A stretch of 64,000 nucleotides of DNA from an uncultured Candidatus Saccharibacteria bacterium (GTDB lineage Bacteria; Patescibacteriota; Minisyncoccia; Phycocordibacterales; UBA918), in NCBI GenBank assembly GCA_964350645.1, contig CAYGJY010000002.1, forward strand, positions 340,936 through 404,935, given 5' to 3'. The translations under genes and the position numbers were made by a program. This document shows, piece after piece, positions 19,749 through 48,043 of this stretch; positions within the stretch are counted from its first letter, which is position 1; each line of letters opens with the position of its first letter. The notes under the pieces are model-generated. The model was not told the DNA's origin and did not search any database. It worked only from the letters and a program-made list of their open reading frames with translations.

Positions 19749-19752
19749 AGGT

Positions 19753-20384: not shown

Positions 20385-20939
20385 ATGTCAGACGCAGCTA
20401 CACTAATGACCGGTCGGTTTGTTATACCTGAGCTGGTAGCAACTCATTTTCATGTTCGAGCTGGTGATACAGTGGGTGATTTTGGAGCGGGGAGCGGGTA
20501 TTTTATTAAAACGTTGGCGGAGTTGGTTGGTCCAACTGGCACAGTCTATGCCTGTGAAATTCAAAAAAACTTGGTTGAAACAATGGGTGAGTTGGCGCGC
20601 CGTGAAAACCTAGGCAATGTCAACGTACTCTGGGGAGATTGTGAAGAAGTGCATGGGTCAAAAATCCCAACTGATTCGCTCGATGTAGCCATTATGGTCA
20701 ATACTTTTTTTCAATTTGAAGACCAGGCTGGAGCGCTCATAGAAATAAAACGTTGTTTACGACCAGGGGGTAAACTCTTCATTATCGACTGGTCAGAATC
20801 ATTTGGTGGACTAGGTCCACAGCCTGATCAGGTCGTTACGAAGAGTGACGCTGAGGGAGTTGCCGTAACGGCAGGCTTTACCAAGGATCGTGACTTTGAC
20901 GCTGGCGACCATCATTATGGGTTGGCGTTTCGTATTTAA
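20385..20939 (+). CDS. class I SAM-dependent methyltransferase
   Basis: Motif I VGDFGAGSGYF, motif post-I …VYACEI…, motif II/III RCLRPGGKLFIID. Confidence 0.65.
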   Translation: MSDAATLMTGRFVIPELVATHFHVRAGDTVGDFGAGSGYFIKTLAELVGPTGTVYACEIQKNLVETMGELARRENLGNVNVLWGDCEEVHGSKIPTDSLDVAIMVNTFFQFEDQAGALIEIKRCLRPGGKLFIIDWSESFGGLGPQPDQVVTKSDAEGVAVTAGFTKDRDFDAGDHHYGLAFRI

Positions 20940-20942
20940 AGT

Positions 20943-22250: not shown

Positions 22251-22252
22251 AT

Positions 22253-22780
22253 ATGAAGATAATAAAAAATTATATTCTCCTCATAGTGTGTGTTGTACTT
22301 TGCAATATCTTCTTTATGACAAACGTACAGGCGGCTACTTGTATTGACGCAGCTGGCGGTATTTTTGAAGCTGATGTTTGTCCAGGTACTCCACCTGTTA
22401 GTCCACCAGCTGATTCACCAGTCAGCCCACCAGCTGATTCACCAGTCAGCCCACCAGCTGATCCACCTGTCAGCCCAATTCGAGACGATGCCGACATTGT
22501 AAATTTCGGTGAGGGAGTATCGCTCATCGACCCAACCGGTAACAAGACTATCCCCCAGATATTCCAGGCCTTGCTTGATATTCTGATGGTCTTTGCGGTC
22601 CCAATTATCCTCTTCTTTATCATTTGGGCTGGATTCCTCTATGTCACCGCAGCCGGCAACGCTGAGCAAATCAAAAAAGCCCACAACGCGCTCTTATATG
22701 CGCTTATCGGTGGACTTTTAGTACTCGGTGCCAATGTTCTCTTGGCAGTTATCAGTAACACTATTAAAGCCTTTATATAA
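22253..22780 (+). CDS. T4SS-pilin-like (TrbC/VirB2-like) secreted two-helix protein, paralog 1, with Pro-rich PPADSPVS repeats
   Basis: Signal peptide. Cys pair (CIDAAG…CPG). Two hydrophobic helices separated by AAGNAEQIKKAHNALLYALIGG. This architecture is shared with the next five ORFs. Confidence 0.55.
   Translation: MKIIKNYILLIVCVVLCNIFFMTNVQAATCIDAAGGIFEADVCPGTPPVSPPADSPVSPPADSPVSPPADPPVSPIRDDADIVNFGEGVSLIDPTGNKTIPQIFQALLDILMVFAVPIILFFIIWAGFLYVTAAGNAEQIKKAHNALLYALIGGLLVLGANVLLAVISNTIKAFI
22391..22474 (+). repeat. coding tandem repeat, 24-bp unit x about 3.5 (ccaccagctgattcaccagtcagc) encoding (S/P)PVSPPAD
   Basis: Seen directly in the sequence. Two perfect units plus one variant unit. 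Confidence 0.7.
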
Positions 22781-22783
22781 AAT

Positions 22784-23062
22784 ATGAACCCGGATAACCC
22801 ACCATTTGATGCAGCTACTTCAGATTTTGCTTGGCTAACTGGCCAAGTAAGTGAGATCATCAATATTTTTGTGATCGTTATTTTCACCCTGACGTTTGTT
22901 TTTATGCTTTGGCAGATTATTAATGGTTTTATAATCAGCGGTGGTGACCAAGCAAAAGTAGCTGAGGCCAAAAAAACTATCGGATTCAGCTTTTTAATCC
23001 TGATTACCATGTCTGCAATTTGGGGGATTGTGGCCCTTTTGCGGACTTCAATTGTAGGCTGA
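22784..23062 (+). CDS. T4SS-pilin-like two-helix protein, paralog 2
   Basis: Helix1 - GGDQAKVAEAKKTIGFSFLIL - helix2 …IWGIVALL. No cleavable signal peptide. Confidence 0.5.
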   Translation: MNPDNPPFDAATSDFAWLTGQVSEIINIFVIVIFTLTFVFMLWQIINGFIISGGDQAKVAEAKKTIGFSFLILITMSAIWGIVALLRTSIVG

Positions 23063-23152
23063 GTTATTAACAACTCTGATAAATAGAGTGATTTCCTCTA
23101 AAAAATCCAGTATACTAATAAATATTAACGAAATAGCCAAGCAAAAGTACGT

Positions 23153-23518
23153 ATGAAAAAAATCCTTGCCCTAAGTTTCCTCCCGACCATTCTGTTGACA
23201 CCGCTGCTCGCAGCCGCTCAGTTTGGAGATGTGGACTTATTTGTGATTGAAATTGGGTTGTTTATAAACTCAACTCTCATCCCAATTTTACTCGCGGTCG
23301 CTTTCCTCGTGTTTATTGTCGGAGCAGTACGGTTCTTCCTTCTCGCCGGTGATGAGTACGACGATAATAAAAAGAAAGGTAAGTCACTGATGTTGTACGG
23401 TATTATTGGTTTTGTTTTGATTGTCAGTATTTGGGGAATTGTCAGACTCTTTTCTGATGGACTCGGGTTGCAAGATGATAACCTAGACAACGTACCGTTT
23501 GCGCCAACTTCAATCTAG
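23153..23518 (+). CDS. T4SS-pilin-like two-helix protein, paralog 3
   Basis: Signal peptide (…LLAAAQF). FFLLAGDEYDDNKKKGKSLMLYGIIGFVLIVSIWGIVRL. Confidence 0.55.
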   Translation: MKKILALSFLPTILLTPLLAAAQFGDVDLFVIEIGLFINSTLIPILLAVAFLVFIVGAVRFFLLAGDEYDDNKKKGKSLMLYGIIGFVLIVSIWGIVRLFSDGLGLQDDNLDNVPFAPTSI

Positions 23519-23544
23519 TAAACAATTAACCTTTTATAGAATTT

Positions 23545-23931
23545 ATGACTACAAAAATCTCAAAAATGTACTACGCGATCTGTCTGGCTTTGTTGACACC
23601 ACTCGTGTCATTTGCACAGTTTAACCGTGGTGACGATGGTATATCTGACTTTGGTGAACGGATCGTTGATTTTATCACCAACATCCTTACACCACTCGTA
23701 TTTGGTGTCGCTCTGCTACTGTTCATTTACGGTGTGTATCTCTACTTTATTCAAGGTGCTGAAGAGGATGATAGCCGTAAGACTGGTCGATCATACATCT
23801 TGTGGTCAATTATCGCTTTAGTGATCATGGTCTCAGTTTGGGGTATTACAAACCTCATCGCTAGTGGCTTTGGATTTAACGATCCTGACGCAATTGATGG
23901 ACTAATCCCAACAGCAGGAGAGGTTCGTTAA
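23545..23931 (+). CDS. T4SS-pilin-like two-helix protein, paralog 4
   Basis: Signal peptide (…VSFAQF). YFIQGAEEDDSRKTGRSYILWSIIALVIMVSVWGITNL. Confidence 0.55.
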   Translation: MTTKISKMYYAICLALLTPLVSFAQFNRGDDGISDFGERIVDFITNILTPLVFGVALLLFIYGVYLYFIQGAEEDDSRKTGRSYILWSIIALVIMVSVWGITNLIASGFGFNDPDAIDGLIPTAGEVR

Positions 23932-23942
23932 CGAGTTCCGTA

Positions 23943-24251
23943 ATGCTTGCCGTCCTCTCGTTTGTTGAATTGTATGTTTCACCATTCTTTGTTGCGGTCG
24001 CCCTCGCGTTCCTACTAAATGGTTTGGTAAACTATTTCATCATTGGCAATCTTGGCTTTGAGGAAGACCGTCGTGAAATGGGAAGACAGTCGCTCTTGTG
24101 GGCGGCTCTTTTCCTGCTGGTTGCTCTTGTATTGTTCGGTTTAACAAATTGGATCGTCTCTCTTGGTGAACGTATCGACGCTGAAGGAGATGTCGAGTAC
24201 CAAACTGGTGGTGATATCCTTAGGGTACCAAACACACCTACGATACAATAA
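23943..24251 (+). CDS. T4SS-pilin-like two-helix protein, paralog 5
   Basis: …IIGNLGFEEDRREMGRQSLLWAALFLLVALVLFGLTNWIV. Confidence 0.5.
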   Translation: MLAVLSFVELYVSPFFVAVALAFLLNGLVNYFIIGNLGFEEDRREMGRQSLLWAALFLLVALVLFGLTNWIVSLGERIDAEGDVEYQTGGDILRVPNTPTIQ

Positions 24252-24255
24252 CACT

Positions 24256-24591
24256 ATGATTGCTTACGCCTCAGATGCAGTGTGTGTTGCTCAAGATTTT
24301 CTTAAGATACTCAATGATGCGATTTTGTTTCCTCTCATCACACTTCTTTTGGCAGTAGCTTTTATTTGGTTCCTCTATGGAGGAATGAAATTTATCTGGA
24401 GTGCTAACAACCCAACAGAACGCGAAAATGGCCGGCAGCACATGCTGTACGGTATTATTGGTTTAGTAGTGATGACCTCGGCGGGAGCGATTCTCGCGAT
24501 CACGGCTAATTCTTTTGGGTTGTCGCCAACCGGACCGGAGTGTGTGATTGATCCAACTTCTGGACCTGACGGTATACCAGCTGATTTGTAA
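24256..24591 (+). CDS. T4SS-pilin-like two-helix protein, paralog 6
   Basis: ATG at 24256 (the track ORF 24163 is N-extended). …FLYGGMKFIWSANNPTERENGRQHMLYGIIGLVVMTSAGAILAI. Confidence 0.5.
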   Translation: MIAYASDAVCVAQDFLKILNDAILFPLITLLLAVAFIWFLYGGMKFIWSANNPTERENGRQHMLYGIIGLVVMTSAGAILAITANSFGLSPTGPECVIDPTSGPDGIPADL

Positions 24592-34932: not shown

Positions 34933-34954
34933 AGATAACTCTGATAAAAGACAC

Positions 34955-34986
34955 AAAAAACTGGCTTGAAAGAGCCAGTTTTTTGT
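34955..34986. terminator. rho-independent terminator after clpB (aaaaaactggct-tgaaag-agccagtttttt)
   Basis: Perfect stem plus T6. Confidence 0.7.
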
Positions 34987-35146
34987 GTCTGCCTGTGCGC
35001 TGAGATGGAGGCGGTTCGACAACTTTGTGTAGTTTGAATTTGCTAATCAACAGCCCAAACCTTCCTTCAAAGTAAATATAAGAGATAATAAACATAAGAG
35101 CTTGATTACATTTGGGGTAGTCCCTGGAAGGACATACCCCGCTTCG

Positions 35147-35305
35147 CTATCGTCGGTGCTTTGTAGCATCGGCGAGAGTGAAGGTACGAGCTTTACCCCT
35201 GTAAGGAGGAACACGTTCACCTTTGGTGAGCGTGATTTCATATTTCGTACCATTCACACGATACTGGCCACTCTTTGGCGCAGTACCACCAGTCTTAGTA
35301 GACAT
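35147..35305 (-). CDS. candidate small ORF (52 aa, MSTKTGGTAPKSGQYRVNGTKYEITLTKGERVPPYRGKARTFTLADATKHRR)
   Basis: Found by manual translation (below the track cutoff). Basic and beta-rich. No SD sequence. Confidence 0.2.
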   Translation of the reverse strand: MSTKTGGTAPKSGQYRVNGTKYEITLTKGERVPPYRGKARTFTLADATKHRR

Positions 35306-35479
35306 AATGATGTGTAAATTACGGATTGATAATCTAACCGCCCTCGACAGGGACGGCCAGTTGTCATCCGTGTATCGAGAACAGATTATCTATTCCTGTG
35401 GAGAGACACCCCCAAATGCAATCAAAGTGCAATTCTGTAACTATTATACCAATATTAGTTACAAATAACATTTCAACAT

Positions 35480-35623
35480 ATGTCGATTTCAAAAGATGCA
35501 GCCGATGAGTTCAAGCGAATTCATAAAGAGAAGTACGATGCAGAGCTTGCTGGTGCAGGAAAACTCATGTCATCGCGGTATCTCCATGACTGGACTTGCT
35601 GTGATATGCGCGTAAAATCTTAA
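35480..35623 (+). CDS. candidate 47-aa upstream ORF translationally coupled to the 1265-aa gene (MSISKDAADEFKRIHKEKYDAELAGAGKLMSSRYLHDWTCCDMRVKS)
   Basis: ATG to TAA ending 4 nt before the ATG of 35627. Below the track cutoff. Confidence 0.25.
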   Translation: MSISKDAADEFKRIHKEKYDAELAGAGKLMSSRYLHDWTCCDMRVKS

Positions 35624-35626
35624 CTA

Positions 35627-38600
35627 ATGGTCAAATGGATTACAGCAACTGAAATTACAGCTTGGGTTAAGCGTGATAGTCGGCGTGCTCAGGAAAAATT
35701 GCCAGAATTGGTCCGCAAGCTGATACAAGCAACCGCATCATCTATAGATAGAATAAACTTTCCGTGCGACGGTAGTGTTACTTCCGGTGGTTGGGATGGG
35801 CATTTGGAAACGAAAGCAAAGACACCCTTTTTCCCAAGCGGACTATCAAAATGGGAAATGGGAGTTGGGGAGTCGTGCGGAAATAAGGCAGACAGTGATT
35901 ATAAGAGCCGGACAGCAGATCCTTTGGATGCTGTACCAGCTGATACTGTCTATGTCCAGGTTTCACCTCAGCCGTGGATAGATCGTGATAATTGGGTGAA
36001 AGCAAAAAAGACTGAGGACATATGGAAAGACGTTCGTGCAATTGGTGCCGACGACCTTGAGTTGTGGCTAGAATCAGCACCTGCAGTAGCATTATGGCTA
36101 GCAAAGGAGATGAAGAAGATCGGCTCTGCAATAAGGGACATAGAAGCTTGGTGGGAATATTGGTCAACCATGACAAATCCCTTTCTCAGTGTCGATCTGG
36201 TTATTTCTGGAAGACAAGACGAGGTCAATGAAATTCATGGGTGGTATAGGAACGGTCCTAATATTTTTGAGATGCAAGGCGATGATGCGCAAGAACCGTT
36301 CGCATTTTTATATTCAGCTCTATCAAAGTTACCGGAAGAAGAATGTCAGAGAGCTTTTTCAAGGTGTGTAGTTGTGGAAACAATTGAGCAGTTACGAGAT
36401 TGCTACGAGTCATTTGTTCATCCTCTAATTATAGCTGTCCCAGCAGAATGCATTGAAGAGGCACATATGGCAGTAAACAAAGGCCATCACGTATTTGTGA
36501 GCGCAAACGCAATGGATCGCTACCGTTATGTGCATAAACTTTCAAGAGCAAAGCGTGAACCAATGCAAGAAGCTTTAGAAAAGTTGGGATTGTCAGAGGC
36601 AGACGCCACTCGTTGTATTCGTAATACAGGGAGAAGCATTCCAGTCATTCGGCGCCAGAGGTTTAAAGCTAGTAACAAGACGCCAGAATGGGCTAAACAA
36701 GAAAATTCAAAGTTTTTACTTCCGGCGTTGTTGGCAGGAGCGTGGACTGATGGACGAGAGGGTGACAAAGAGATGATGGAGGCATTGTCTGGCATGCCTT
36801 ACAGTAAGTTTTCAAAGAGCATAAAGCCATTAACTAAGGTTGAAGACTCTCCCTTAATCAAAGTTGGGCATGTATGGATGTTAAAGTCACCTTTGGATGC
36901 TTGGTTTCTTGCTGCACAGTATTTAGATCAAGACGATTTTACCAATTTTAGACGAGGATTAAGTGCAGTATTAACTGAAACTGATCCAAAGTATGATCTT
37001 CCTTCTAGTGAACGTTGGATGGCAGGTGTAAAAGGTAAAACTCCAAAATGTTCAAGATGGGTTAGGAGGGGGTTGGTAGAGTCGTTAGTTTTGCTCTCAG
37101 TGTATGGTGACAAAATCTCTGAAGAAATTAATTCACCAGAAGATTTTGCGTATTCGGTAGTAAAGGATCTTTTAGATGCGGCTAATACATGGGAGGCATG
37201 GGCTACGCTAAAAGATGTAATGCCACTGCTTGCAGAAGCTTCACCTGATGCATTTATAGATGTTCTTGATGAGAAGATTGATTCTGAAAAAGAAATTTTT
37301 GTTGAGTTGATGAAGGATGATGAAGATCGTTTTGGCTTTGGTGATTGTCGTCACTCAGGCTTGTTATGGGCTTTGGAAAGTATTGCGTGGGACCCAGAAT
37401 ACGTCACCGCCGCGTCAATGGCGCTTTTAAAGTTGGCTCAAATTGATCCTGGTGGAAGATGGTCTAACAGACCACTTGCTAGTCTTACAGACATTTTATT
37501 ACCAGCATTGCCTCAGACTTACGCGAACGCAAAGCAGCGTGTTAAGGTTTACAAAAAGATTATTAAAGAAGACGCCGTGATTGCATGGCAGCTGGCAAGT
37601 AGTCACATGGGTGGTGGTACAGTTTCACCATCGCATTCTTTCCAATGGAGAGATATGGGTGGTGATAGAGGCGCGTTACAGCAAGTGTCGAGTGAGGATT
37701 ACACTGAGTATTTGAAGTCAATGTTTCCTATTTGGGCAGATTTAGTTTGTGTAAACAACTCTACGGTATCAAGTGGCATAGAGGATTTTATTCGGTTACC
37801 CGAAGAAATTAGAAAAAGTCTTGTAAAGAAACTTGACCAGTTAGATAAGAAATCTTTCTCAATTGAGGAAAGGAAGGTTATTTTGCAACACTTGAGACAC
37901 ACTTTAAATTGGATTCTCAATTATGATAAGGAAGAAAATTATAAAAAACACGTTCCGGCACTTAGGAGAGCCTATAATTTGTTAACGCCAGAGGATCCAT
38001 TGGATCGAATTGATTGGTTATTTCAAGACGGTTGGCCAGATTTACCAGAAGCAACAAAAAGACATGATCAACAGGAACGCCTTGAGGAACTTCGGATAGA
38101 GGCGGCGAAAATGCTGCTTGAAGAGGTGTCACTTGGTGCTATTGGAAAGTATGGCTCCGGATTGAATTATCAAGCAGCTTTTGGGTCAGCTTTTGCCAAG
38201 GCTGAAGGGAAAAAACATGATCCGGGTATTGTTAGTGAATTTTCAAAGTACGTAAAAGAAAGTCCATGGTTATTGGTTGGTTATGCGATGGGTTTGTTTG
38301 ATTCTGGTGGACAAAAGGCTGTTTTGGGTCAAATTGAGGTAGTTGAAGCAGGTAAGCTAAAATCACAAGAAAAAATCATTGCGTCACTCTTAAGAGGATT
38401 GCCTGAGCAAAGTGACACATGGTCCATTGTGGAATCTTACGGCGATCGAGTTGGTAAAGAATATTGGCTTTTGGCTTCTGGATATACAAGAAGAGATGAT
38501 CAGAAAAAACATGATGCAGAGTATGCGGTTAAAAAGCTTATTGATGTCGGTAGGCCTGGGGTCGCGGTTCGTATAGCTGGAGATTCACATGGTTCTTTAC

Positions 38601-39424
38601 CAAGTGCACTTCTAAAGCAGGTCCTGTTAGAACTTCTTAACTTAAGTGTTGAAGACAAGAATATGATTGATGGATCAATGTTGGAGTTTTATTTATCAAA
38701 TATATTTGACCAACTGTACAAAAATGACGATCTCACTTTAGAAGAGATTGGAGCTTTGGAGTGGCCATATGCACAAATTTTTGACCACCATCACAAAAGG
38801 ACTAAATCCCCAATGGCTTTGCATCAAAATCTACAAAGCAACCCAGGTTTTTTTGTAGAGCTTTTGTCGTACTTATATAAAAAGGATGATGGTTCAAATT
38901 CTAAGCCGGACAATCTATCAAAAAAACAAGCTGAAAATATTGCAAAGAACGCATACGAAGTTCTCCATACTTGGAGTCTGGTGCCGGGTGTAAGTAGTAG
39001 TGGAGAGGTAGATAAAGAGGTTCTGCGCGAATGGGTCATTACAGCTAGAAAAATGGCCAAAGAGCAAAGTTATTTAAAGGGCTGTGATCTTAAGTTGGCT
39101 GAGATTCTATCTAAAATGCCACAAGATTCAGATGGTGTGTGGCCTCATGTCGCACTGCGTGATCTGCTTGAAGAAGTAAAAAGCTCGATACTTGATAAGC
39201 ACATTCCATTTGCTATCTACAATAGCCGAGGAGTGCGTTCAAAAAGTTTGACGGATGGAGGAAGTGAAGAAAGAAGGTTGGCAGATAAATATATGGCCTG
39301 GTCGAAGGAGTTAAGTGATAACTGGCCGCGTACTTCTAGGGTTCTAAAAAACCTCTCCACTATGTTTAGTAGAGATGCAGAAAGAGAAGACATTGATTCC
39401 CAACTTCACGACTTAGAGTACTAG
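35627..39424 (+). CDS. large (1265 aa) predominantly alpha-helical protein of unknown function, cargo of integrative element
   Basis: Long uninterrupted ORF. No Walker A, HEPN, or nuclease motif recognisable by eye. Cys-containing N-terminal about 150 aa (…INFPCDGSVTSGGWDGHLE…GESCGNKADSDYKSR…). Confidence 0.7.
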   Translation: MVKWITATEITAWVKRDSRRAQEKLPELVRKLIQATASSIDRINFPCDGSVTSGGWDGHLETKAKTPFFPSGLSKWEMGVGESCGNKADSDYKSRTADPLDAVPADTVYVQVSPQPWIDRDNWVKAKKTEDIWKDVRAIGADDLELWLESAPAVALWLAKEMKKIGSAIRDIEAWWEYWSTMTNPFLSVDLVISGRQDEVNEIHGWYRNGPNIFEMQGDDAQEPFAFLYSALSKLPEEECQRAFSRCVVVETIEQLRDCYESFVHPLIIAVPAECIEEAHMAVNKGHHVFVSANAMDRYRYVHKLSRAKREPMQEALEKLGLSEADATRCIRNTGRSIPVIRRQRFKASNKTPEWAKQENSKFLLPALLAGAWTDGREGDKEMMEALSGMPYSKFSKSIKPLTKVEDSPLIKVGHVWMLKSPLDAWFLAAQYLDQDDFTNFRRGLSAVLTETDPKYDLPSSERWMAGVKGKTPKCSRWVRRGLVESLVLLSVYGDKISEEINSPEDFAYSVVKDLLDAANTWEAWATLKDVMPLLAEASPDAFIDVLDEKIDSEKEIFVELMKDDEDRFGFGDCRHSGLLWALESIAWDPEYVTAASMALLKLAQIDPGGRWSNRPLASLTDILLPALPQTYANAKQRVKVYKKIIKEDAVIAWQLASSHMGGGTVSPSHSFQWRDMGGDRGALQQVSSEDYTEYLKSMFPIWADLVCVNNSTVSSGIEDFIRLPEEIRKSLVKKLDQLDKKSFSIEERKVILQHLRHTLNWILNYDKEENYKKHVPALRRAYNLLTPEDPLDRIDWLFQDGWPDLPEATKRHDQQERLEELRIEAAKMLLEEVSLGAIGKYGSGLNYQAAFGSAFAKAEGKKHDPGIVSEFSKYVKESPWLLVGYAMGLFDSGGQKAVLGQIEVVEAGKLKSQEKIIASLLRGLPEQSDTWSIVESYGDRVGKEYWLLASGYTRRDDQKKHDAEYAVKKLIDVGRPGVAVRIAGDSHGSLPSALLKQVLLELLNLSVEDKNMIDGSMLEFYLSNIFDQLYKNDDLTLEEIGALEWPYAQIFDHHHKRTKSPMALHQNLQSNPGFFVELLSYLYKKDDGSNSKPDNLSKKQAENIAKNAYEVLHTWSLVPGVSSSGEVDKEVLREWVITARKMAKEQSYLKGCDLKLAEILSKMPQDSDGVWPHVALRDLLEEVKSSILDKHIPFAIYNSRGVRSKSLTDGGSEERRLADKYMAWSKELSDNWPRTSRVLKNLSTMFSRDAEREDIDSQLHDLEY

Positions 39425-39481
39425 ATAATCTTGAAAGTATTACCTAATTTACCAAAAGTAAAAGAGAAGGCATCAAATCTC

Positions 39482-40102
39482 TTAATAAACATTACGAAAT
39501 TCGTAGTAGCCATAACCAAGAATCTCTTTATTGAATACTACAACACCGTGTACACAGCCTGTTACAGCAGGGTAAAAAGTAAATGACGCTATATCTTCGG
39601 TAGGGTTGTTAATTGGTTGATTCTCAAGAATGCGTATGAGTGTGCTTACAAATGATAGCCATGATTCGTCATTTTTAAAATGCTCAGCGCTGATACCGTT
39701 ATTCCCTGTAGCTTCAAGTATTTCAACACGAAGTTTTTTCATATAGGCGAAATCCATCGATGGTGACTCTGTAGATACAGCCGCAGGATTTTCGATTTGT
39801 TTTTTTGCATCCAAATATATTTCAGACATCATTTGTCGCATGTTTTCAGTGACTCGGTCTTTTTCTGTATGTACCGTCCAGTCACAGTAAAATCTCAAAA
39901 GTGTGTGAGATCCTGTTTTCCAATGGTCACTTTTATGGTCCAGTATCTTTCTCATTTGAACCATGAAGTAAACAACTTCTTTCTCCGAACTGATACAAGG
40001 TATTTCGCCCAGTATTTCATTCAGCTTATGTACTATTTCTAGCTCTGCCATTTGTAGATTAAAGCATAAAAAGAATAGTTGCAGTAGTTTTGACCAAAAC
40101 AC
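39482..40102 (-). CDS. hypothetical protein (element cargo)
   Basis: 206-aa ORF on the opposite strand. An alternative ATG (MAELEIV…) lies at 40048. Confidence 0.5.
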   Translation of the reverse strand: MFWSKLLQLFFLCFNLQMAELEIVHKLNEILGEIPCISSEKEVVYFMVQMRKILDHKSDHWKTGSHTLLRFYCDWTVHTEKDRVTENMRQMMSEIYLDAKKQIENPAAVSTESPSMDFAYMKKLRVEILEATGNNGISAEHFKNDESWLSFVSTLIRILENQPINNPTEDIASFTFYPAVTGCVHGVVVFNKEILGYGYYEFRNVY

Positions 40103-40156
40103 AGCTATATGAGTACAATAGCTTTGAATCTTTGATTCTTATCAAAAATCAAACTT

Positions 40157-40426
40157 ATGGCACGAGGAGGCAAAAGACCAGGCGCCGGTCGTAAAAAAGG
40201 ATATGCAGCAAAGACCGCCGAAGAGACACGGAAAGTTATTGCTGAACTTGTTTCAAAAGATATTACCCCAATCACCAAGGCTTTAATTAAAAAAGCTAAA
40301 CAGGGTGATGTTCGCGCCTCTAGTCTATTGTTTGACAGAGCTTTTGGTAAGCAAACAAATGAACCTAAAAATCAGACCTTTTCTTTTAATGTAGCTGAAA
40401 TGAGGGAGAGGTATAAGCCTGATTAA
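40157..40426 (+). CDS. small basic putative DNA-binding protein with AT-hook-like N-terminus (MARGGKRPGAGRKKG…)
   Basis: 89 aa. The G-R-P/K-rich N-terminus resembles an AT-hook or phage small DNA-binding protein. Confidence 0.45.
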   Translation: MARGGKRPGAGRKKGYAAKTAEETRKVIAELVSKDITPITKALIKKAKQGDVRASSLLFDRAFGKQTNEPKNQTFSFNVAEMRERYKPD

Positions 40427-40641
40427 AAATTAAGACACCTTAGTGATTTTACTGAATTTGAAGAGCTATATTCATCACAAAATCGAGCTTGGTAGTATGT
40501 TTCTTCCCAATATCTGCTTTCGGTAGTATCAATTGTTTTGTAACTGATTCCTTGAAGTTCTATTATTAAAATTGTCAGTAGTATCAGAATGCCTAATTTG
40601 AACCAGTTTCTACTAATGAAAGATAAGATTTGTTTTTTCAT
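40423..40641 (-). CDS. small hypothetical membrane/secreted protein
   Basis: 72 aa with an N-terminal hydrophobic helix. AT-rich. Confidence 0.3.
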   Translation of the reverse strand: MKKQILSFISRNWFKLGILILLTILIIELQGISYKTIDTTESRYWEETYYQARFCDEYSSSNSVKSLRCLNF

Positions 40642-40903
40642 GTGTATTAATTATTGGGATATACAAAAAGCCCACTGCTAAAAGGTAGGACGTGAGTCCA
40701 CATGATCAGTTTCCCAAACATGACACAGAACGTGACCCCGTTAACAGCGGGTTCTTTATCGTTCTGTGGTTAACTTATTCGCACCATATCGCCAGCGAAC
40801 TGTCGGGTTAGGTGACTATATTGTTTAAGTAGTATTACACTGGCGTTTCCTGATTGCAATGTTTTTTAATCAGCATAAGATTAGTTTCTAAATGTAGATG
40901 TAA

Positions 40904-41650
40904 ATGAATATCAAGGCGCTTTTACAGAGAATACCCGTAGATTCCAGAATTCGTGAGATAACCAAAAACTATCGCGAAGCTATTGGTGTGCCGCTTGGCG
41001 GCTTTGATTCGTATGAAGATTGGGAATCTTGGTCAGTTAAGGTTGCTAATAAAAAACGGGGACTCAATTTCAATCAATATTTTAGGGAGATTAAAAAAAT
41101 TGTTCCCTACAAAGGAGTGGTTAGCAACAATGCTTTCAAGGGAGTGATATTGGATTTTTATTACATAAAGAATTTTGATGTGGAAGATCAATACCAAAAA
41201 TATCGCTTTGATTTATTTGGTGTAGGTTTAATCCTGAATAAAAAGACTGATGGTTTGAATCTAACTAAAGGAAAGGGACTTGAGGATGGAGTTTACATAC
41301 GAATCCCAAGTAACATTGACCCGAGCGAACTAAAAAAATTTGTGACAGAAAAGAAGGAAGTAATACGGTCCGTTCAGATGTTTTTTAATGAGAACAAAAA
41401 AATTGCTTCACCAAAACTAACGTATTTGAGTGGTCTTGAGCGAGATGAAATAATTTCAGCACTTTATGATTACTCACTAAAGGAGCTGGAAGAAATGACT
41501 GGTTTACCTAGAGAGGGATTAAATAGAGATGATTACACTGCTCTAGTTGTAGAGAAGTACCTTGGATTTAGTCCCACAAGTGGAGCGGCAGTTTTGCAGG
41601 CCAAAAAAAGGTTTCGTAGAAAAGAAAAAGGTCTTTGGGGGGACTACTAA
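40904..41650 (+). CDS. hypothetical protein (element cargo)
   Basis: 248-aa ORF, no motif recognised. Confidence 0.5.
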   Translation: MNIKALLQRIPVDSRIREITKNYREAIGVPLGGFDSYEDWESWSVKVANKKRGLNFNQYFREIKKIVPYKGVVSNNAFKGVILDFYYIKNFDVEDQYQKYRFDLFGVGLILNKKTDGLNLTKGKGLEDGVYIRIPSNIDPSELKKFVTEKKEVIRSVQMFFNENKKIASPKLTYLSGLERDEIISALYDYSLKELEEMTGLPREGLNRDDYTALVVEKYLGFSPTSGAAVLQAKKRFRRKEKGLWGDY

Positions 41651-41707
41651 CAAGTAGTTTATTTGTCCTCCTACTTTGAATGTCCAACTCTACATAGACT
41701 GTAGTTA

Positions 41708-41953
41708 ATGCTGTCGTATAAAGATGAAAATGTATATCAGACTTCTGATTTTGCAGAAGCTATCACTTTAAAATATTTTAGTCATCAAATTAAATTTGTT
41801 GACCGAAGTGAAAAACGGGCTGTTTTTCACTTTTTTCGCAAGGACAATACCCAAGAAGTTTTATCGGCATTTAGAGAGCGCGGTTTGAAGGTCGAGCCTT
41901 TTGCTTTTTACCAATGTGAACGTGAGGTTAAGTCTCGTCTTTATAACGGCTGA
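41708..41953 (+). CDS. hypothetical protein (element cargo)
   Basis: 81-aa ORF. Confidence 0.4.
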   Translation: MLSYKDENVYQTSDFAEAITLKYFSHQIKFVDRSEKRAVFHFFRKDNTQEVLSAFRERGLKVEPFAFYQCEREVKSRLYNG

Positions 41954-41954
41954 T

Positions 41955-42134
41955 ATGGAACTTCCGGAAGAACACATGAAAGAGTTTATCGCTCTATATA
42001 AAAAACACTACGGGGTGGTGCTTAGTCGTGATGAGGCGATACGAAAAGGTAAACAGTTAATGAGATTTGTTGAGATGGTTGAGTTCTCAAGCGATGATGT
42101 AAATGAAAATGACTATGACGTATTTACCCAGTAA
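41955..42134 (+). CDS. hypothetical small protein (element cargo)
   Basis: ATG at 41955 (MELPEEHMKEF…) 2 nt after the previous stop. The track ORF 41901 is N-extended. Confidence 0.3.
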   Translation: MELPEEHMKEFIALYKKHYGVVLSRDEAIRKGKQLMRFVEMVEFSSDDVNENDYDVFTQ

Positions 42135-42936
42135 GGAAATATATTTTAATACTGTACCTCATTACATTAAAGAGGATTTTTATGACGCTTCTAAACCACT
42201 TAATACACCAGAATTTAATTTAATAAACCATTTGAGAGTGGTAGCTAATAAGTTCGGGTACGTCCAAGTTACAGCCGATCAGCTAAGGGGTGACGTTTTT
42301 AGTAATCGGATCAAGAGGTGTAGGGTAAATGATTTACTCTTATCTATACGTAACCAGCAGTATATATGGTACGCAGACAGGAAGGGAAACGGAGGTACTT
42401 TTATAATCCAAAATAACTACTGGCTTGTGGCTGAAGGTATTTGGTATGTCGTTGATGATTCTGCTTGGCATAAAAACGGAGGTAGTGGTTTATGTAGACA
42501 GTTACCCAAAAAGGAGGATGTAATGGAGCTGAAAAATCAAAAACGGATGTTTAGAGAAGGTAATCAGATTGATAGTAAGGGCTATTTTGAACAAAAAGCA
42601 GATGCAGAAAACGGAAGTTCTTATACAGATAACGATACTAATAAAATTTACGATCGTACGAATAAGAAGAAAACTAAGACTAAAGACTTCATTCCTAACT
42701 CAAGTATTGATGATCAGCTACAAAGAATCGCCAAAGAAATAGGCGAAGAGCATATGGGATTCGTATTTTTTATTTATGGTAAGCATGGGGAGGATGGTAT
42801 TTTGATTATGGACAAAATTGCCAGAGATCTACGAGACAAGCAGGGGATAAAGAATAAAGGTGCGTATTTTAATAGTGAGGTGATTAGGGAGCTGCAAACT
42901 GATATCGCCATCCCGGTAGAAAAAGGTAGAATGTAA
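42103..42936 (+). CDS. hypothetical protein (element cargo)
   Basis: 277-aa ORF ending 7 nt before the recombinase gene. Confidence 0.5.
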   Translation: MKMTMTYLPSKEIYFNTVPHYIKEDFYDASKPLNTPEFNLINHLRVVANKFGYVQVTADQLRGDVFSNRIKRCRVNDLLLSIRNQQYIWYADRKGNGGTFIIQNNYWLVAEGIWYVVDDSAWHKNGGSGLCRQLPKKEDVMELKNQKRMFREGNQIDSKGYFEQKADAENGSSYTDNDTNKIYDRTNKKKTKTKDFIPNSSIDDQLQRIAKEIGEEHMGFVFFIYGKHGEDGILIMDKIARDLRDKQGIKNKGAYFNSEVIRELQTDIAIPVEKGRM

Positions 42937-42942
42937 TTAAGT

Positions 42943-44718
42943 ATGTCGTTTCAAGATAGATACAAAGCAAATAAATATTTTCTCTACATACGAAGGTCCC
43001 AAGATGCTGAGGATCGTCAGATGGCGTCACTTGAGGATCAAGAATCTGAAATGCTTTCAATAGCAGATCGTCTTGGACTTGATATTGTCGATACAATTAA
43101 GGAGTCACAATCAGCAAAGAAGCCAGGACGACCGAAATTTAATGAGATGCTTGCTCGCATCCATTCCGGTGAAGCAGATGGAATTCTGTGCTGGAAGATT
43201 AATCGTCTGGCTCGTAATCCAGTTGATGGTGGACAAATCTCTTGGTTATTACAGCAGGAGATTATTAAGCATATACAGACGTATTCGAGAGACTACCAGC
43301 CGACTGACAATGTGATTATGATGGCGGTTGAGCTTGGAATGGCTAATCAGTTTGTTAATGACCTCAGTGTTGATGTAAAGCGTGGAATGAGAAATAAAGC
43401 AGAGCGTGGTTGGAATCCTCAAAGACTATTGCCATCAGGTTACAAACACAATAAGGGATATGAAAAAGGTGAAGCTGAGATACTGAGTACCGATAAGTTG
43501 CCGATAGTTAAAAAACTTTTTACCGATATGCTGACTGGATCGTATTCACCAGCAGATATTCAAAGACTTAGTCAGACATACGGTTTAATGAATAAGTTTG
43601 GAAGACCACTAGCACTTCAAACGATACATAATATGCTCAGTAGTGAGTTTTACTGTGGTTACTACTACTGGAAGGGTCCAGATGGCTCTGAAGTGCGCTA
43701 TAAAGGCAAGCATGAGGTTATTTTGAGTGAAGATGAGTTCAATCAAGTCCAACGCCTTCTAGGTAAAAAAGGAAGGCCTACAAGAGTCAATAAATTAGAC
43801 TTTGCTTTTAGAGGTCCTTTGAACTGCGGAGAGTGTGGATATGCAGTAACAGCCGAAGATAAGGTTAGGACTTTGTGTACTGGATGTCGTTGTAAATTCT
43901 CCTGCAAGACCCAAACAGCATGTCCTAAGTGTGGTTTAGATATTTCAGAAATGAAGAATCCAAAGATTTATCATAATGTGTATTATCACTGTACGAAAAA
44001 GCGTAAAGACATAAAGTGTACTCAGAGTGTTATTGATGAAAAAGTACTGAAGAAACAAGTGTACTCAAAGTTGGGTGAAGTTGAGATTGATAAAGATTTC
44101 TATAATTGGGCTGTTGCAGCTTTAAAACATACTCATGGTGATGAGATGGAGACTCAAAGTGACATTTTGAAACATCTCAATGATCGCTCTGTTTCTATTC
44201 AGGCACGTATTGATAAATTGGTACTAATGAGGGCTGATGGTGAGATTTCTAGTGACCAGCTTGCTCGAATGACTGCTGAAGCAGAAAAGGATCTTAAGGA
44301 GGTTGAGAAGGAGCAGAAGCGTTTGCATGCAAGAATGACGGAGTGGTCCAGTACCGCAGATAAATACCTCACTTTTGCAGATAGGGTACGAAGAAAGTTC
44401 AATAAAGCTTCAAATGAGGAAAAGCGAGAGATGCTAGTGATGTTAGGTTCGACACTCGAAATTACTGATAAAAAATTCAATGTTATAGTCGCGAATGAGC
44501 TTTTAGGTTTCAAAAATGTATCTGTGAAGATAGGCAAGAGATTAGGTAGGTTCGACAATCAAAAAGCCCTTGATATACAAGGACTTTCTGACCAAAAACG
44601 CATGGTTTTTGACGAACTGTGCGCCGGGTTGGATTCGAACCAACGTAGGATAAATCCGACAGGTTTACAGCCTGTTGCAATTGACCACTCTGCCACCGAC
44701 GCGTCTATAAAATTGTGA
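42943..44718 (+). CDS. large serine recombinase (resolvase-domain integrase with recombinase domain, zinc ribbon and coiled-coil)
   Basis: N-terminal resolvase catalytic domain (YIRRSQDAED…GILCWKINRLARN). Cys-rich zinc beta-ribbon (CGECGY…CTGCRCKFSC…CPKCG). C-terminal coiled-coil. The last about 33 codons are antisense to tRNA-Tyr. Confidence 0.8.
   Translation: MSFQDRYKANKYFLYIRRSQDAEDRQMASLEDQESEMLSIADRLGLDIVDTIKESQSAKKPGRPKFNEMLARIHSGEADGILCWKINRLARNPVDGGQISWLLQQEIIKHIQTYSRDYQPTDNVIMMAVELGMANQFVNDLSVDVKRGMRNKAERGWNPQRLLPSGYKHNKGYEKGEAEILSTDKLPIVKKLFTDMLTGSYSPADIQRLSQTYGLMNKFGRPLALQTIHNMLSSEFYCGYYYWKGPDGSEVRYKGKHEVILSEDEFNQVQRLLGKKGRPTRVNKLDFAFRGPLNCGECGYAVTAEDKVRTLCTGCRCKFSCKTQTACPKCGLDISEMKNPKIYHNVYYHCTKKRKDIKCTQSVIDEKVLKKQVYSKLGEVEIDKDFYNWAVAALKHTHGDEMETQSDILKHLNDRSVSIQARIDKLVLMRADGEISSDQLARMTAEAEKDLKEVEKEQKRLHARMTEWSSTADKYLTFADRVRRKFNKASNEEKREMLVMLGSTLEITDKKFNVIVANELLGFKNVSVKIGKRLGRFDNQKALDIQGLSDQKRMVFDELCAGLDSNQRRINPTGLQPVAIDHSATDASIKL
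44620..44702 (-). tRNA. tRNA-Tyr (anticodon GTA), type II
   Basis: Minus-strand GCGTCGG-TG-GCAGAGTGGTCAATTGC-A-ACAGG-CTGTAAA-CCTGT-[CGGATTTATCCTACG]-GTTGGTTCGAATCCAAC-CCGGCGC-A. Entirely inside the 3' end of the recombinase ORF on the opposite strand. Confidence 0.8.
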
Positions 44719-44830
44719 TAGTACAGGTGACCGGTACGTTAGTATCGGCCACCTGTACGGTGCTATAAACTACCATATCTTTTACAATCCGAAAAGTACG
44801 TCTGCCTGTGCTACTATTTTGGTATTACAT

Positions 44831-45835
44831 ATGAAAGCTTTTTTACTGGGATTGGTCTGTTTGACGCTGTGTAGTTTTGTTGGGCCTGAATTAGCGCAGG
44901 CTCAATTGGTGGCTGAGCCATGTACGCCAGGTATTGATGATTGCCCTAGTACGAACCGTGAAGCTGCTCGGTATGGTACTTGCGAGTTTGTCGAAACGAT
45001 TCAGAACGTTTTTAACTTTGTCATCCAGATTTCTTCAATTCTAGTGGTTTTTATGCTCGCCTTCTATGGACTTTGGTTGGTGGTGTCTGGAGGTAATACA
45101 ACAGTCCGAGATAAGTTAAAAGAGTACCTTGTGAATGTCGTAGTCGGTCTACTCCTGATTATAGCTGCATATGCGATTGTAAACACTATTATCACAATCT
45201 TGGTTGCTGATGAAAAAGTTAAAACTAGCTGGGGTCAAATTGAGTGTATTTATCCAACTGCAGCGGTAGAAATTGAATTATATAGAGGCAGACCAACAGC
45301 GGTACCGGGAGTAACAGAAGGGGCTCTTTCTTCGGCAGCAGTCGAAGCTGGTGTTGTGGGAGTAGAACCATACCGGGAAGCAATTTGTGCTCGAGCTGCT
45401 GCTCGAGGTATCGGCTCTGAGTGTACTAAGATATTGGCACTTATGTCGGTTGAGTCCGCGGGACGACCATCGGTTGAAAGTCCGGCGGGAGCGGTTGGTT
45501 TAATGCAAATCATGCCAGCAACAGCCAAGACTTTGGATCCAGCTTTGTCTGGATTATCAGATACCGAAATTAAAAACCGCCTGAAAGATCCGAACTACAA
45601 CCTTGACTTAGGGATAAAATTTTATGCCCAGTTGAAAGAAGAGTTTGGTGAAGATCGCTTGGTGTGGGCGGCATACAACGGTGGACGAGGAGCTAATGGT
45701 GATAGTCGAGATTGTCCAGGTCTTCGCCGTTGGGAGTGTGAGTGGGATAATCCGGCCAAGACTATTCCCAATACTGGTTATAAAGAAACCCGCAACTATG
45801 TACCGAACATTATGAGGGCGCTCGAGAGGTTATAA
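44831..45835 (+). CDS. T4SS-pilin-like N-terminal module fused to lytic transglycosylase (SLT, VirB1-like) domain
   Basis: N-terminus: signal peptide, Cys pair (CTPGIDDCPS), two-helix pilin-like module (…FYGLWLVVSGGNTTVRDKLKEYLVNVVVGLLLIIAAYAIV…). C-terminus: …LMSVESAGRP…GAVGLMQIMP…AAYNGG (SLT catalytic Glu, GLMQ, AYNGG). ATG at 44831 (the track start 44819 is a TTG). Confidence 0.65.
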   Translation: MKAFLLGLVCLTLCSFVGPELAQAQLVAEPCTPGIDDCPSTNREAARYGTCEFVETIQNVFNFVIQISSILVVFMLAFYGLWLVVSGGNTTVRDKLKEYLVNVVVGLLLIIAAYAIVNTIITILVADEKVKTSWGQIECIYPTAAVEIELYRGRPTAVPGVTEGALSSAAVEAGVVGVEPYREAICARAAARGIGSECTKILALMSVESAGRPSVESPAGAVGLMQIMPATAKTLDPALSGLSDTEIKNRLKDPNYNLDLGIKFYAQLKEEFGEDRLVWAAYNGGRGANGDSRDCPGLRRWECEWDNPAKTIPNTGYKETRNYVPNIMRALERL

Positions 45836-45842
45836 TATCTGT

Positions 45843-46745
45843 ATGAATATGAGTACGTTATTTCGAGGTTTGCTAGTCGTGTTGATTACCACAGTGTTTG
45901 TTACTCCGTCACTCGTGTGGGGAGCTGAAGGGTTGGTTACCTGCGATGGCGTAGCGTCTAAAGGGGTTGAGTGTAATTTCTGTACCTTGGCACAAATGGT
46001 TGAGAAGGTGATTGACTTCATTGTGATAATCCTAGTGCTGATATCGGTGATTATGTTGGCTGTTACGGGTATTCAGATGGCTTATACAGCGGCCGGCAAC
46101 GGTAACGCTCTTGAGGTTCTCAAAGAGCGCATGACTAATATTGTGATTGGATTTTTCCTAATTTTAGCGGCTTGGACATTGGTGGATACGCTAGTAAAAG
46201 TATTGGTGGCAAATACTAGCGATAATGAAGTGGTACTTAGCTGGCGTACATTTGGTATGAGTGCAAGTGACTTGTGTGGCAAAACATTAAAGCCGGTAGA
46301 AGAAGTATTGTACTCAGCTGATTATGAAGCTTCTCTGACACCAGAAGCAGCAGCTGCTGCAGCTGAGGTTTATCCTGCAGGAGTATCGATTGTTCCGGAT
46401 TTAGAGAGTTTGGCGAGTTTACGTGAGGCAGGAGTTGTCGTGGCAGATTGGCATGGTATTGATGGGCCCGGCCGCACAGATAAAGCCCATCCTTCAGTGG
46501 TGAGCGCTGCAGTTAGGATGAATGAGGCGGCGATTGCTGAGTTTGGTAAACCAATATTTCAGATCACGGCCGCCACGACTGATGGAGTAGGGCATAGTGC
46601 AAATAGTCAACATTATAAGGGAACAGCTATTGATTTAGATCCAATCAACGGAGCGACTACAGCTCAGGTAAAGGCTTTGGCTAAGAGTGCTGGTTGTACA
46701 TTTATCCTAGACCATGGTTCTCACGTTCATTGTGATTTTAGGTAG
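45843..46745 (+). CDS. T4SS-pilin-like N-terminal module fused to LAS/M15-type zinc peptidase-like domain (putative peptidoglycan peptidase)
   Basis: N-terminus: signal peptide, Cys pair (CDG…CNFC), two-helix module (…MAYTAAGNGNALEVLKERMTNIVIGFFLILAAWTLV…). C-terminus: …GVGHSANSQHYKGTAIDLD…DHGSHVHCDF (H-x6-D … H-x-H, the LAS metallopeptidase pattern). Confidence 0.6.
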   Translation: MNMSTLFRGLLVVLITTVFVTPSLVWGAEGLVTCDGVASKGVECNFCTLAQMVEKVIDFIVIILVLISVIMLAVTGIQMAYTAAGNGNALEVLKERMTNIVIGFFLILAAWTLVDTLVKVLVANTSDNEVVLSWRTFGMSASDLCGKTLKPVEEVLYSADYEASLTPEAAAAAAEVYPAGVSIVPDLESLASLREAGVVVADWHGIDGPGRTDKAHPSVVSAAVRMNEAAIAEFGKPIFQITAATTDGVGHSANSQHYKGTAIDLDPINGATTAQVKALAKSAGCTFILDHGSHVHCDFR

Positions 46746-46981
46746 GGTTTTGCGACAGACATAAAAAGAGATTTTGGGTAAAATAATACCTAGCTAAAGC
46801 TGGATGTTTCCTAAAGTTATCTCCCGCAGCAGCCGCAGGTGCGACTTCGAGTTACTAATGATTGTTCGTCATACTTCCTCAAATCATAAGTACTCGTTGT
46901 CACGACTCAGCTATTGCTAAAGCAATATGCTTCCGTCTCCCGCTCGAGTACGAACCTGAAGCAGTTCAGGTTCTAAAAGAA

Positions 46982-47016
46982 AAGCACGATTCTTAAGAAT
47001 CGTGCTTTTCTTTTAC
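46982..47016. terminator. bidirectional hairpin terminator (aaagcacgattc-ttaa-gaatcgtgcttt) 3' of tRNA-Gly
   Basis: 12-bp perfect stem flanked by A-rich and T-rich runs. Confidence 0.45.
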
Positions 47017-47021
47017 TCGAG

Positions 47022-47092
47022 CGGGCCCACGTGGACTCGAACCACGGCCGCTGGTTTTGGAGACCAGAATTCTACCACTAAACTATAGGCCC
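47022..47092 (-). tRNA. tRNA-Gly (anticodon TCC)
   Basis: Minus-strand GGGCCTATAGTTTAGTGGTAGAATTCTGGTCTCCAAAACCAGCGGCCGTGGTTCGAGTCCACGTGGGCCCG. Confidence 0.85.
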
Positions 47093-47149
47093 TTACTTTT
47101 ATCCTCCTTCGCTTGGTGCGCTACATAGTAGGGGAAAGCATGAGTAAGG

Positions 47150-48043
47150 TCAACTAAGAAAATTGCTCACGTTGGATTCTAGTGCTCTCATGTCTGTTTG
47201 GTCAACCCACACAATACTGTCGTCACGTTTTAACCAGGTGAGCTGTCGTTTAGCGTATTGCCAGTTTTTTTCTACCAGCTTTACTCTCAGGGTATTCTCA
47301 TCAATTTCTCCCGCGAGGTATTCCATGACTAATCGATATTCTAGACCAATTTCTGATAACCGTTCGGGATCGAGACCGGCAGCTAAGACCTTTTCTGTCT
47401 CTGCAATTAATCCACGTTCCAAGGCACTGTTCGCACGAACTTTAAGGCGTTCTCGTAGTTCGGTGCGGTCAGTACTAATGCCGATCATGTATGTGTCATA
47501 AGGGGATTCAACAGTTACTGGCTTAGGAACCTTCCCAATTGATTTAATTATTTCAAGAGCCCGCACGAGACGACGTTTGTTATTAGGGTCAATGTGGAAA
47601 GCCCGGTCTGGATCAAGTCGTTCTAAACTAGCAAACAGTGTTTCGTTACTCATTTCTTCGAGGTGAGCGCGTAGAGTTGGATCAGGCGGAACCTCAGGAG
47701 TGCTGATGCGACCAAGGAGGGCATCGATATAAAAAAAGGTCCCGCCAGCAATAATTGGTAGCTTGCCACGAGCAGTAATATCTTCAATCGCTTTAGCAGC
47801 ATCAGTTTTAAAGTCAGCTACCGAATAAACGGTCTCAGGTGGGACAATGTCGATGAGGTGATGGGGTATGCCAGCCATTTCCTCAGTCGAAACTTTTTCG
47901 GTACCAATATCAAGGCCAGTATAGACTTGCCGTGAATCAGCAGAAATAACCTCTCCGTTATATTGTTGTGCAAGCTTGATTGCTAAACCAGTTTTTCCAG
48001 CTGCAGTTGGTCCAACCACTACAATGAGTTTGGTTTTATCCAT
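47150..48043 (-). CDS. miaA: tRNA dimethylallyltransferase
   Basis: P-loop VVVGPTAAGKTGLAIKLA, …ISADSRQVYTGLDIGTEK…. 297 aa. Confidence 0.85.
   Translation of the reverse strand: MDKTKLIVVVGPTAAGKTGLAIKLAQQYNGEVISADSRQVYTGLDIGTEKVSTEEMAGIPHHLIDIVPPETVYSVADFKTDAAKAIEDITARGKLPIIAGGTFFYIDALLGRISTPEVPPDPTLRAHLEEMSNETLFASLERLDPDRAFHIDPNNKRRLVRALEIIKSIGKVPKPVTVESPYDTYMIGISTDRTELRERLKVRANSALERGLIAETEKVLAAGLDPERLSEIGLEYRLVMEYLAGEIDENTLRVKLVEKNWQYAKRQLTWLKRDDSIVWVDQTDMRALESNVSNFLS

Follow-up and report, generated by a model that had tools for sequence, protein, structure and literature searches.

Adjacent genes joining a VirB2-like pilin-family module to two different peptidoglycan hydrolases in a Patescibacteria chromosome

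The window analysed here is a stretch of 64,000 nucleotides from contig CAYGJY010000002.1 of an uncultured Candidatus Saccharibacteria bacterium (assembly GCA_964350645.1), and it carries two adjacent genes, here called A and B, that each join a short pilin-like N-terminal module to a peptidoglycan hydrolase domain. Gene A (44831..45835) starts with an ATG at 44831 and encodes 334 amino acids (aa), and gene B (45843..46745) encodes 300 aa; our open reading frame (ORF) calls placed both exactly at the coordinates given in an earlier note on this DNA. Both genes, and all of the features within them, lie on the plus strand, and because only 7 bp separate them they are almost certainly co-transcribed. 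A promoter and terminator scan of positions 44500-47200 gave no signal above shuffled controls. Pfam searches identified gene A as a fusion of a pilin module with a lytic transglycosylase, matching PF18895 (T4SS_pilin) at residues 52-120 with 27.3 bits (cut-off 26.6) and PF01464 (SLT) at residues 187-291 with 73.3 bits (cut-off 21.3). Gene B was identified as a fusion of the same kind of module with a LAS (M15) zinc peptidase, matching PF18895 at residues 52-116 with 30.9 bits (cut-off 26.6) and PF08291 (Peptidase_M15_3) at residues 224-298 with a marginal 24.6 bits (cut-off 23.2). Neither protein has a CHAP or NlpC match in Pfam. Their common layout consists of a signal peptide, a Cys-rich segment, a two-helix hairpin, a disordered linker and a wall hydrolase. 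The earlier note had read the genes at 44831-46745 as a VirB2-like pilin module fused to two different hydrolases, and this is borne out by the profile searches reported below, by alignments of the catalytic residues and by the predicted folds. Public data already hold a protein that is 100% identical to that of gene A (P0001), and one homologue of gene B has been named by NCBI as a [quoted passage not shown].

The AlphaFold2 (AF2) model of gene A has a mean predicted local distance difference test score (pLDDT) of 88.5. The protein begins with a Sec-type signal peptide (aa 1-24, 44831..44902), which we read from the sequence by its basic n-region, hydrophobic core and A-x-A motif; it is modelled as a helix at residues 2-22 and would be cleaved between ELAQA and the following Q. 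Next comes a Cys-rich external segment (aa 25-52, 44903..44986) with C31, C38 and C51, which at 44% mean pairwise identity is the best-conserved part of the N-terminal module. It is followed by a two-helix, VirB2/TrbC-like hairpin (aa 53-124, 44987..45202), where the PF18895 match lies and where AF2 places helices at 42-85 and 90-124. The post-hairpin segment (45203..45331) is made up of a small predicted beta-hairpin at aa 125-141, with strands at 130-133 and 136-139, and a linker at aa 142-167, in which pLDDT falls below 50 at 142-150. A fourth Cys after helix 2, C139, is located in the beta-hairpin and is conserved among homologues. Mean identity is 30% over residues 125-141 and 16% over residues 142-167, the linker being poorly conserved. 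The remainder of the protein is a family-1 lytic transglycosylase (SLT) domain (aa 168-334, 45332..45832), with the codon of the catalytic E208 at 45452-45454.

Gene B follows the same plan. Its signal peptide (aa 1-27), also read from the sequence and with a presumed cleavage site, and its Cys-rich segment (aa 28-48) together cover 45843..45986; there is no variation at C44 and C47 in the homologue alignment, and hardly any at C34. The two-helix pilin-like hairpin (aa 49-120, 45987..46202) again coincides with the PF18895 match, and AF2 places its helices at 46-85 and 89-120. Overall, the N-terminal modules of A and B are 32% identical. A low-confidence segment (aa 121-185, 46203..46397) comes next; from 121 to 181 most of its residues have a pLDDT of less than 50, and mean identity is 34% for 122-146 and 20% for 147-185. 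It contains C145, which is invariant among homologues. The C-terminal part is a zinc peptidase domain of the LAS / hedgehog-DD-peptidase fold (aa 186-300, 46398..46742), in which the codons of H257, D264, H294 and H296 are at 46611-46613, 46632-46634, 46722-46724 and 46728-46730, respectively. In both proteins, cleavage of the signal peptide would leave the N-terminus outside, and two membrane helices with their loop inside would bring the C-terminal enzyme to the outside as well. The conserved Cys pairs would fit such an extracytoplasmic, oxidising location, where disulfides may staple the ends of the hairpin.

Judging by their sequences, both enzymes appear to be active. E208 of gene A is aligned with E478 of E. 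coli Slt70, the catalytic residue of that enzyme. The SLT motifs that had been claimed for this gene (ES, GLMQ and AYNGG) are all present, and E208, S209, Q226 of GLMQ and A281-G285 of AYNGG are invariant in 29 homologues. The AF2 model, which was built from a 29-sequence alignment, has a lysozyme-like domain at 168-333 with pLDDT mostly 91-98, and Foldseek matched its fold to those of Slt, MltE, MltC, MltD and MltF (best E = 2e-4). The LAS/M15-type motifs claimed for gene B are present too: H257-x6-D264 is invariant in 14 homologues, and H294-V-H296 is nearly invariant among them. A profile of the gene B family matched the hedgehog N-terminal domain (Shh-N) with E = 2e-4 and the Zn DD-carboxypeptidase of Streptomyces albus (1lbu) with E = 1e-3. 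H257 and D264 fall on the Shh motif LHYEGRAVD, and H294 and H296 on HIH; these four positions are those of the LAS zinc site. The predicted model of B also resembles hedgehog-N, VanX and DD-carboxypeptidase in its fold. No catalytic Glu or His is missing from either domain (E208; H257, H294 and H296). By their families, the enzyme of gene A would act on glycan strands and that of gene B on stem peptides or cross-links.

To gain insight into the identity of the N-terminal module, we scanned 22 such modules individually. PF18895 was matched by 20 of the 22 and TrbC/VirB2 (PF04956) by nine (best E = 1.2e-5), and no other membrane family was matched by more than three. Against TrbC, gene A has E values of 4e-3 for the full protein and 4e-4 for the module alone, and those of relatives range from 2.7e-5 to 1.2e-4. 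The layout of TrbC/VirB2, a signal peptide and then two hydrophobic helices with a short loop, is found in A and B in both sequence and AF2 models. A remote homology to TrbC is supported by these searches at the family level. Among the fusions, whose sequences are only about 30-60% identical overall, hairpin identity is 31-55%, a figure somewhat inflated by biased transmembrane composition, and the corresponding values are 37-45% for the catalytic domains and 16-20% for the linkers. Because the hairpins are about as conserved as the catalytic domains and well above the linkers, the constraint on them appears to exceed what a mere anchor would need. The earlier note had allowed that this region might be only a generic signal-anchor, which is not what we found; the PF18895 matches instead support its assignment to the pilin family. 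A profile of the 22 modules that was searched against all PDB sequences did not find the solved VirB2, TraA or TrbC pilins, and returned only non-significant hairpins of G-protein-coupled receptors (E~0.15). Structural matches to the hairpin were also generic, which is either neutral or a point against pilin identity. Also in favour of a pilin-family module is a relative from outside the window, a metagenomic protein (P0321, 820 aa) with eight tandem T4SS_pilin hairpins, which scores 223 bits against PF18895 and 51 bits against TrbC (cut-off 27.9) and resembles a pilin polyprotein or fused array.

We then surveyed related genomes for the same fusions, as the earlier note had proposed. We scanned one genome per GTDB species with a single peptide pattern, so that the resulting count of 39 species-representative loci with a pilin-SLT fusion, all of them in Patescibacteria, is a lower bound. 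The named carriers are Adler-, Kaiser-, Giovannoni-, Azam-, Falkow- and Kerfeldbacteria or Paceibacteria, together with some auto-labelled metagenome-assembled genomes. Local hidden Markov models (HMMs) placed the pilin module and the SLT domain within one ORF at 38 of the 39 loci, the exception being a truncated one (L040). In a HMMER search of 1.84 billion representative proteins, 903 clusters were recovered at E<=1e-30, and nearly all of the top 150 span the whole profile in one stretch. The pilin-SLT fusion is therefore a large and common family of Patescibacteria, and the architecture, which had been described as unusual, is so only in comparison with classical type IV secretion systems (T4SS). 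The gene located 3' of the fusion usually encodes a second pilin-module protein, the C-terminus of which is mostly a divergent LAS-like peptidase. One genome (L007) encodes three fusions, including pilin + Peptidase_M15_4 (PF13539), and other relatives have pilin + SLT_3 (PF18896) and pilin + VanY. Altogether, at least five Pfam families of wall hydrolases are joined to the same pilin module. The architecture is already present in precomputed domain tables, and the Pfam curators probably saw it, because the accessions PF18895 and PF18896 are adjacent. Some variations on the arrangement were also observed. In Falkowbacteria-like loci (L026, L027, L042 and L043), the pilin-SLT gene is followed by one for an SLT protein of ~260 aa without a pilin module. 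At another locus (L006:9544-9933, GCA_041389045.1), a 129-aa pilin-only ORF stands in place of the pilin-SLT gene directly 5' of the pilin-M15 gene, which suggests that the SLT domain was lost or the gene split.

The neighbourhoods of these relatives connect the fusions with type IV secretion. At 13 of the 39 loci, a VirB4-type ATPase (PF19044 P-loop_TraG, AAA_10, DUF87) is encoded <=6 kb upstream of the fusion, on the same strand and 1-4 genes away. At four of the 39 loci (L009, L012, L013 and L018), the fusion directly heads an array of small pilins downstream of gyrA and of genes for a methyltransferase and a solute-binding protein, the same context as that of the window's own pilin array at 22253-24591. 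Seven of the 39 loci, as well as the metagenome loci L002-L006, share the clpB…miaA neighbourhood of the window. PF18895 pilin arrays have been documented in Patescibacteria and are essential in Southlakia epibionticum (PMC12102498, PMC10633639). The essential T4SS cluster of this species encodes SEML1_0006, which combines a cysteine protease domain with two lysozyme-like ones, and SEML1_0007, which has a C-terminal Hedgehog/DD-peptidase fold and adjoins the VirB4 homologue SEML1_0008 (PMC10633639 Table S2). Six PF18895 pilins are found in the same cluster (PMC10633639 Table S2; PMC12102498). A glycan-cutting enzyme and a hedgehog-fold peptidase are thus already tied to the only Patescibacteria T4SS that has been studied experimentally, and in the lineage of the window each of these two activities is joined to a pilin module. 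As a further observation, virB4-linked loci (L030-L038 and L045; for example L045:2949-4067) encode a pilin-module protein of 340-495 aa with a Cys-rich C-terminal region between virB4 and pilin-SLT. We considered whether the C-terminal regions of these virB4-adjacent “pilin-X” proteins are LAS peptidases and rejected this, as they have no H…D/HxH motif and no Pfam match.

The array in the window itself consists of six small paralogous pilin-like genes (22253..24591, + strand). The earlier note held that genes A and B start with the same module as this array. This is upheld at the level of the family, since four of the six members match PF18895 above threshold, but hairpin identity between the array and the fusion modules is only ~17%. 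The Cys pair that had been described as common to both is not: Cys residues flank the hairpin in only two of the six array members. In the first member (175 aa, 22253-22780), the hairpin is preceded by a signal peptide, a pair of Cys residues and a triple proline-rich repeat (PPVSPPADS-like), an extension that is N-terminal and not C-terminal. Over 17277-24591, the array is preceded by gyrA, the small methyltransferase and the 435-aa solute-binding protein (SBP_bac_1/8), which has no adjacent ATP-binding cassette (ABC) permease or ATPase. This gene order is kept in the four distant species mentioned above, in which a fusion heads the array.

The window as a whole is ordinary chromosome, with glmS, ftsZ/ftsA, gyrA, infB, clpB, miaA, parB, relA/spoT, topA, dprA and serS. 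Relatives that are 35-41% identical have the common order infB, aminotransferase, clpB, [variable], pilin-SLT, pilin-X, [variable], miaA, parB, relA, topA, and on the basis of this gene order the pair is a conserved, vertically inherited chromosomal locus. Between clpB and the pair, an element with a low G+C content (GC; 0.36-0.42) has been inserted at 35627-44718 that is not at this position in relatives. Its cargo includes a 591-aa large serine recombinase, the reading frame of which enters a tRNA-Tyr (44619-44702, minus strand), a protein of 1265 aa with an end-to-end match to phrog_18693 (E 1.8e-172), and several ORFs without a family. We found no sensible direct repeat of >=14 nt bounding the island when searching 34800-44800. 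The GC of the pair is 0.44-0.45, near the genome average, and the tRNA-Tyr separates it from the island; genes A and B are outside this prophage-like element. Between the tRNA-Tyr and gene A, and 3 bp past the recombinase stop, there is a 17-nt inverted repeat (44721-44758; 88% complementary, 4-nt loop) that may be a terminator or the remnant of a recombination site. Elsewhere in the window, an ORF at 4653-5621 encodes MliC (membrane-bound inhibitor of C-type lysozyme) with a Gmad2 Ig-like domain, and it may serve as a wall-protection factor alongside the tethered hydrolases.

Given these results, we lean towards the view that A and B are a wall-opening, VirB1-equivalent pair of a T4SS or VirB2-like pilus to which their hairpins steer them, a reading that we consider slightly better than an even bet. 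The cleavable signal peptide would export each protein, and the VirB2/TrbC-like hairpin would insert it in the membrane with both termini outside and the loop inside. The flexible linker of ~45-65 residues may then give the enzyme reach into the wall, where the pair would supply the equivalent of VirB1, A by cutting glycan and B by cutting peptide. The hairpin could draw both enzymes to the platform that gathers pilins, which would limit cleavage to the exit site of the pilus or channel, and it might also permit their co-assembly as minor “modular” pilins. Such recruitment to a T4SS or pilus would be in line with the loci at which a VirB4-type ATPase or a pilin array accompanies the fusion. 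Several results weigh against this reading. Both proteins barely exceed the PF18895 cut-off, and their scores against TrbC (PF04956) are sub-threshold, at 17.8 bits for A and 17.1 bits for B (cut-off 27.9), so that by the curated threshold they are not classifiable as bona fide TrbC/VirB2 pilins. The model of B has a pLDDT of 65 overall, its catalytic domain being mostly at 80-90. The pair is placed among housekeeping genes in the source lineage, and no T4SS ATPase or other T4SS gene is encoded in the 64-kb window. The link to T4SS that the earlier note had drawn is for this reason not visible in the window itself, and it is the VirB4-type ATPase upstream of the fusion in 13 of 39 relatives that speaks for it.

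It is because of this setting that A and B might instead be housekeeping autolysins, which remodel the cell's own wall for growth or division and use the hairpin as a co-opted anchor without a current connection to a T4SS. The conserved neighbourhood is a housekeeping one (clpB … miaA, parB, relA, topA) and far from T4SS genes, and as reduced genomes hold few wall hydrolases, an essential general role would be plausible. However, a mere anchor would not need a hairpin conserved on a par with the catalytic domains, virB4 adjoins the fusion in 13 of the 39 species representatives and pilin arrays are headed by it in four, and five hydrolase families have been joined to this one module and not to ordinary signal anchors. 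We therefore regard this explanation as unlikely. Much less probable still is that the pair are prophage lysis genes, that is, endolysins with a holin-like or signal-anchor hairpin that belong to the adjacent island (35.6-44.7 kb). The pair does directly follow this low-GC island with its large serine recombinase and phrog_18693 protein, and SLT and LAS domains match PHROGs of phage endolysins and tail lysins. None of these matches extends to the hairpin, all being confined to the catalytic domains (A 140-333, B 248-300); in relatives, which lack the island, the pair still lies between clpB and miaA; and the tRNA-Tyr lies between an island with a GC of 0.36-0.42 and a pair with a GC of 0.44-0.45. 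We rejected this explanation on the grounds of synteny and the extent of the PHROG matches.

A further alternative would make the fusions weapons on a pilus, with the hydrolase modules polymerised into a VirB2-like pilus or capping it, and breaching the host wall for attachment, feeding or effector delivery. The N-terminal module is of the pilin family, and in some genomes the fusion heads the array of small pilins. In conjugative pili, both termini of the pilin face the filament exterior. As the termini face outwards and the linker is long and flexible, a C-terminal enzyme could be exposed on such a filament. Modular type IV pilins with functional modules provide a precedent (PMC8179133), and Patescibacteria are largely epibionts whose T4SS and pilins are required on the host. 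On the other hand, a globular domain of 115-170 residues on each subunit would be hard to pack, leaving minor or tip subunits at best. Hairpin identity is also higher among the fusions (34%) than among the array pilins (21%), which fits a fixed partner better than a variable, exposed filament. For these reasons we consider display on a pilus rather unlikely. The same low probability applies to the idea of “modular VirB2-type pilins”, in which the T4SS extracts hydrolase-bearing subunits from the membrane into a conjugative-type pilus or its tip. If true, this would be the first enzyme-carrying pilus of the conjugative class, through which an ultra-small epibiont drills its own wall, that of its host, or both, and it would account for the presence of VirB2-like pilins but few VirB1 homologues in surveys of the phylum.

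The preferred reading, that of a wall-opening pair for a T4SS, addresses the question of how a VirB2-type pilus gets across the wall of a monoderm cell. Patescibacteria account for a large part of bacterial diversity, and in the sole species that has been genetically tested, epibiotic growth requires the T4SS and its array of pilins. In the accessible papers that we searched, we found no description of a fusion between a VirB2-like pilin and a hydrolase, although the individual domains and the idea of hydrolases dedicated to secretion systems are already known. A phylum-wide survey of T4SS called VirB2 by PF18895 and VirB1 by separate HMMs, and it does not mention hydrolase fusions (PMC12102498). 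In the same survey, most genomes with VirB2 were without VirB1, and it was suggested that other glycosidases might fill this role (PMC12102498). The fusions are a concrete candidate for this missing wall-opening function, and both A and B are short proteins with clear catalytic residues.

Among known systems, VirB1 of Agrobacterium and its relatives is the counterpart of gene A, as it has an SLT/GH23-type domain with a conserved Glu and is presumed to open the wall locally for the T4SS or pilus. VirB1 is a separate, soluble, exported protein, whereas the domain in gene A is covalently joined to a VirB2-like hairpin. In many relatives the fusion gene is located in a virB4 locus, while here it is not in a T4SS locus. 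PrgK (pCF10), TraG (pIP501) and CwlT (ICEBs1), multidomain wall hydrolases from the conjugation systems of monoderm bacteria, are also membrane-anchored and extracytoplasmic and combine glycan- and peptide-cleaving activities (PMC12102498). In these proteins a plain transmembrane segment precedes both activities within a single polypeptide, and the peptidase is of the CHAP or NlpC-P60 type (plus LytM in PrgK). In A and B the activities are spread over two genes, the peptidase is of the LAS/M15 type, and each protein has a hairpin of the pilin family. Because they have no CHAP or NlpC domain and their activities are split between genes, A and B are not members of the PrgK/TraG type. Gene B resembles TagX of the Acinetobacter type VI secretion system (T6SS), in which two predicted transmembrane helices precede a wall-facing C-terminal peptidase of the VanY superfamily (PF13539) and which is needed for biogenesis of the secretion machine (PMC5061870). 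TagX differs in that it serves another secretion system and its helices have not been reported as pilin-like. To our knowledge, it also has no partner transglycosylase fusion. The small PF18895 pilins of Patescibacteria T4SS are in the same Pfam family as the N-terminal modules of A and B, but array pilins of this kind are 90-140 aa long, lack an enzymatic domain and are more divergent. Finally, modular type IV pilins such as PilB and PilC of S. sanguinis share with A and B a small N-terminal pilin module onto which a functional C-terminal module has been grafted, which is a widespread strategy (PMC8179133). They differ in their class III signal peptide and in having only one N-terminal helix, which is unrelated to the VirB2/TrbC hairpin, and their modules are mostly adhesins or lectins. 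The fusions described here broaden the concept of “modular pilins”, so far one of type 4 filaments, to include the pilins of T4SS.

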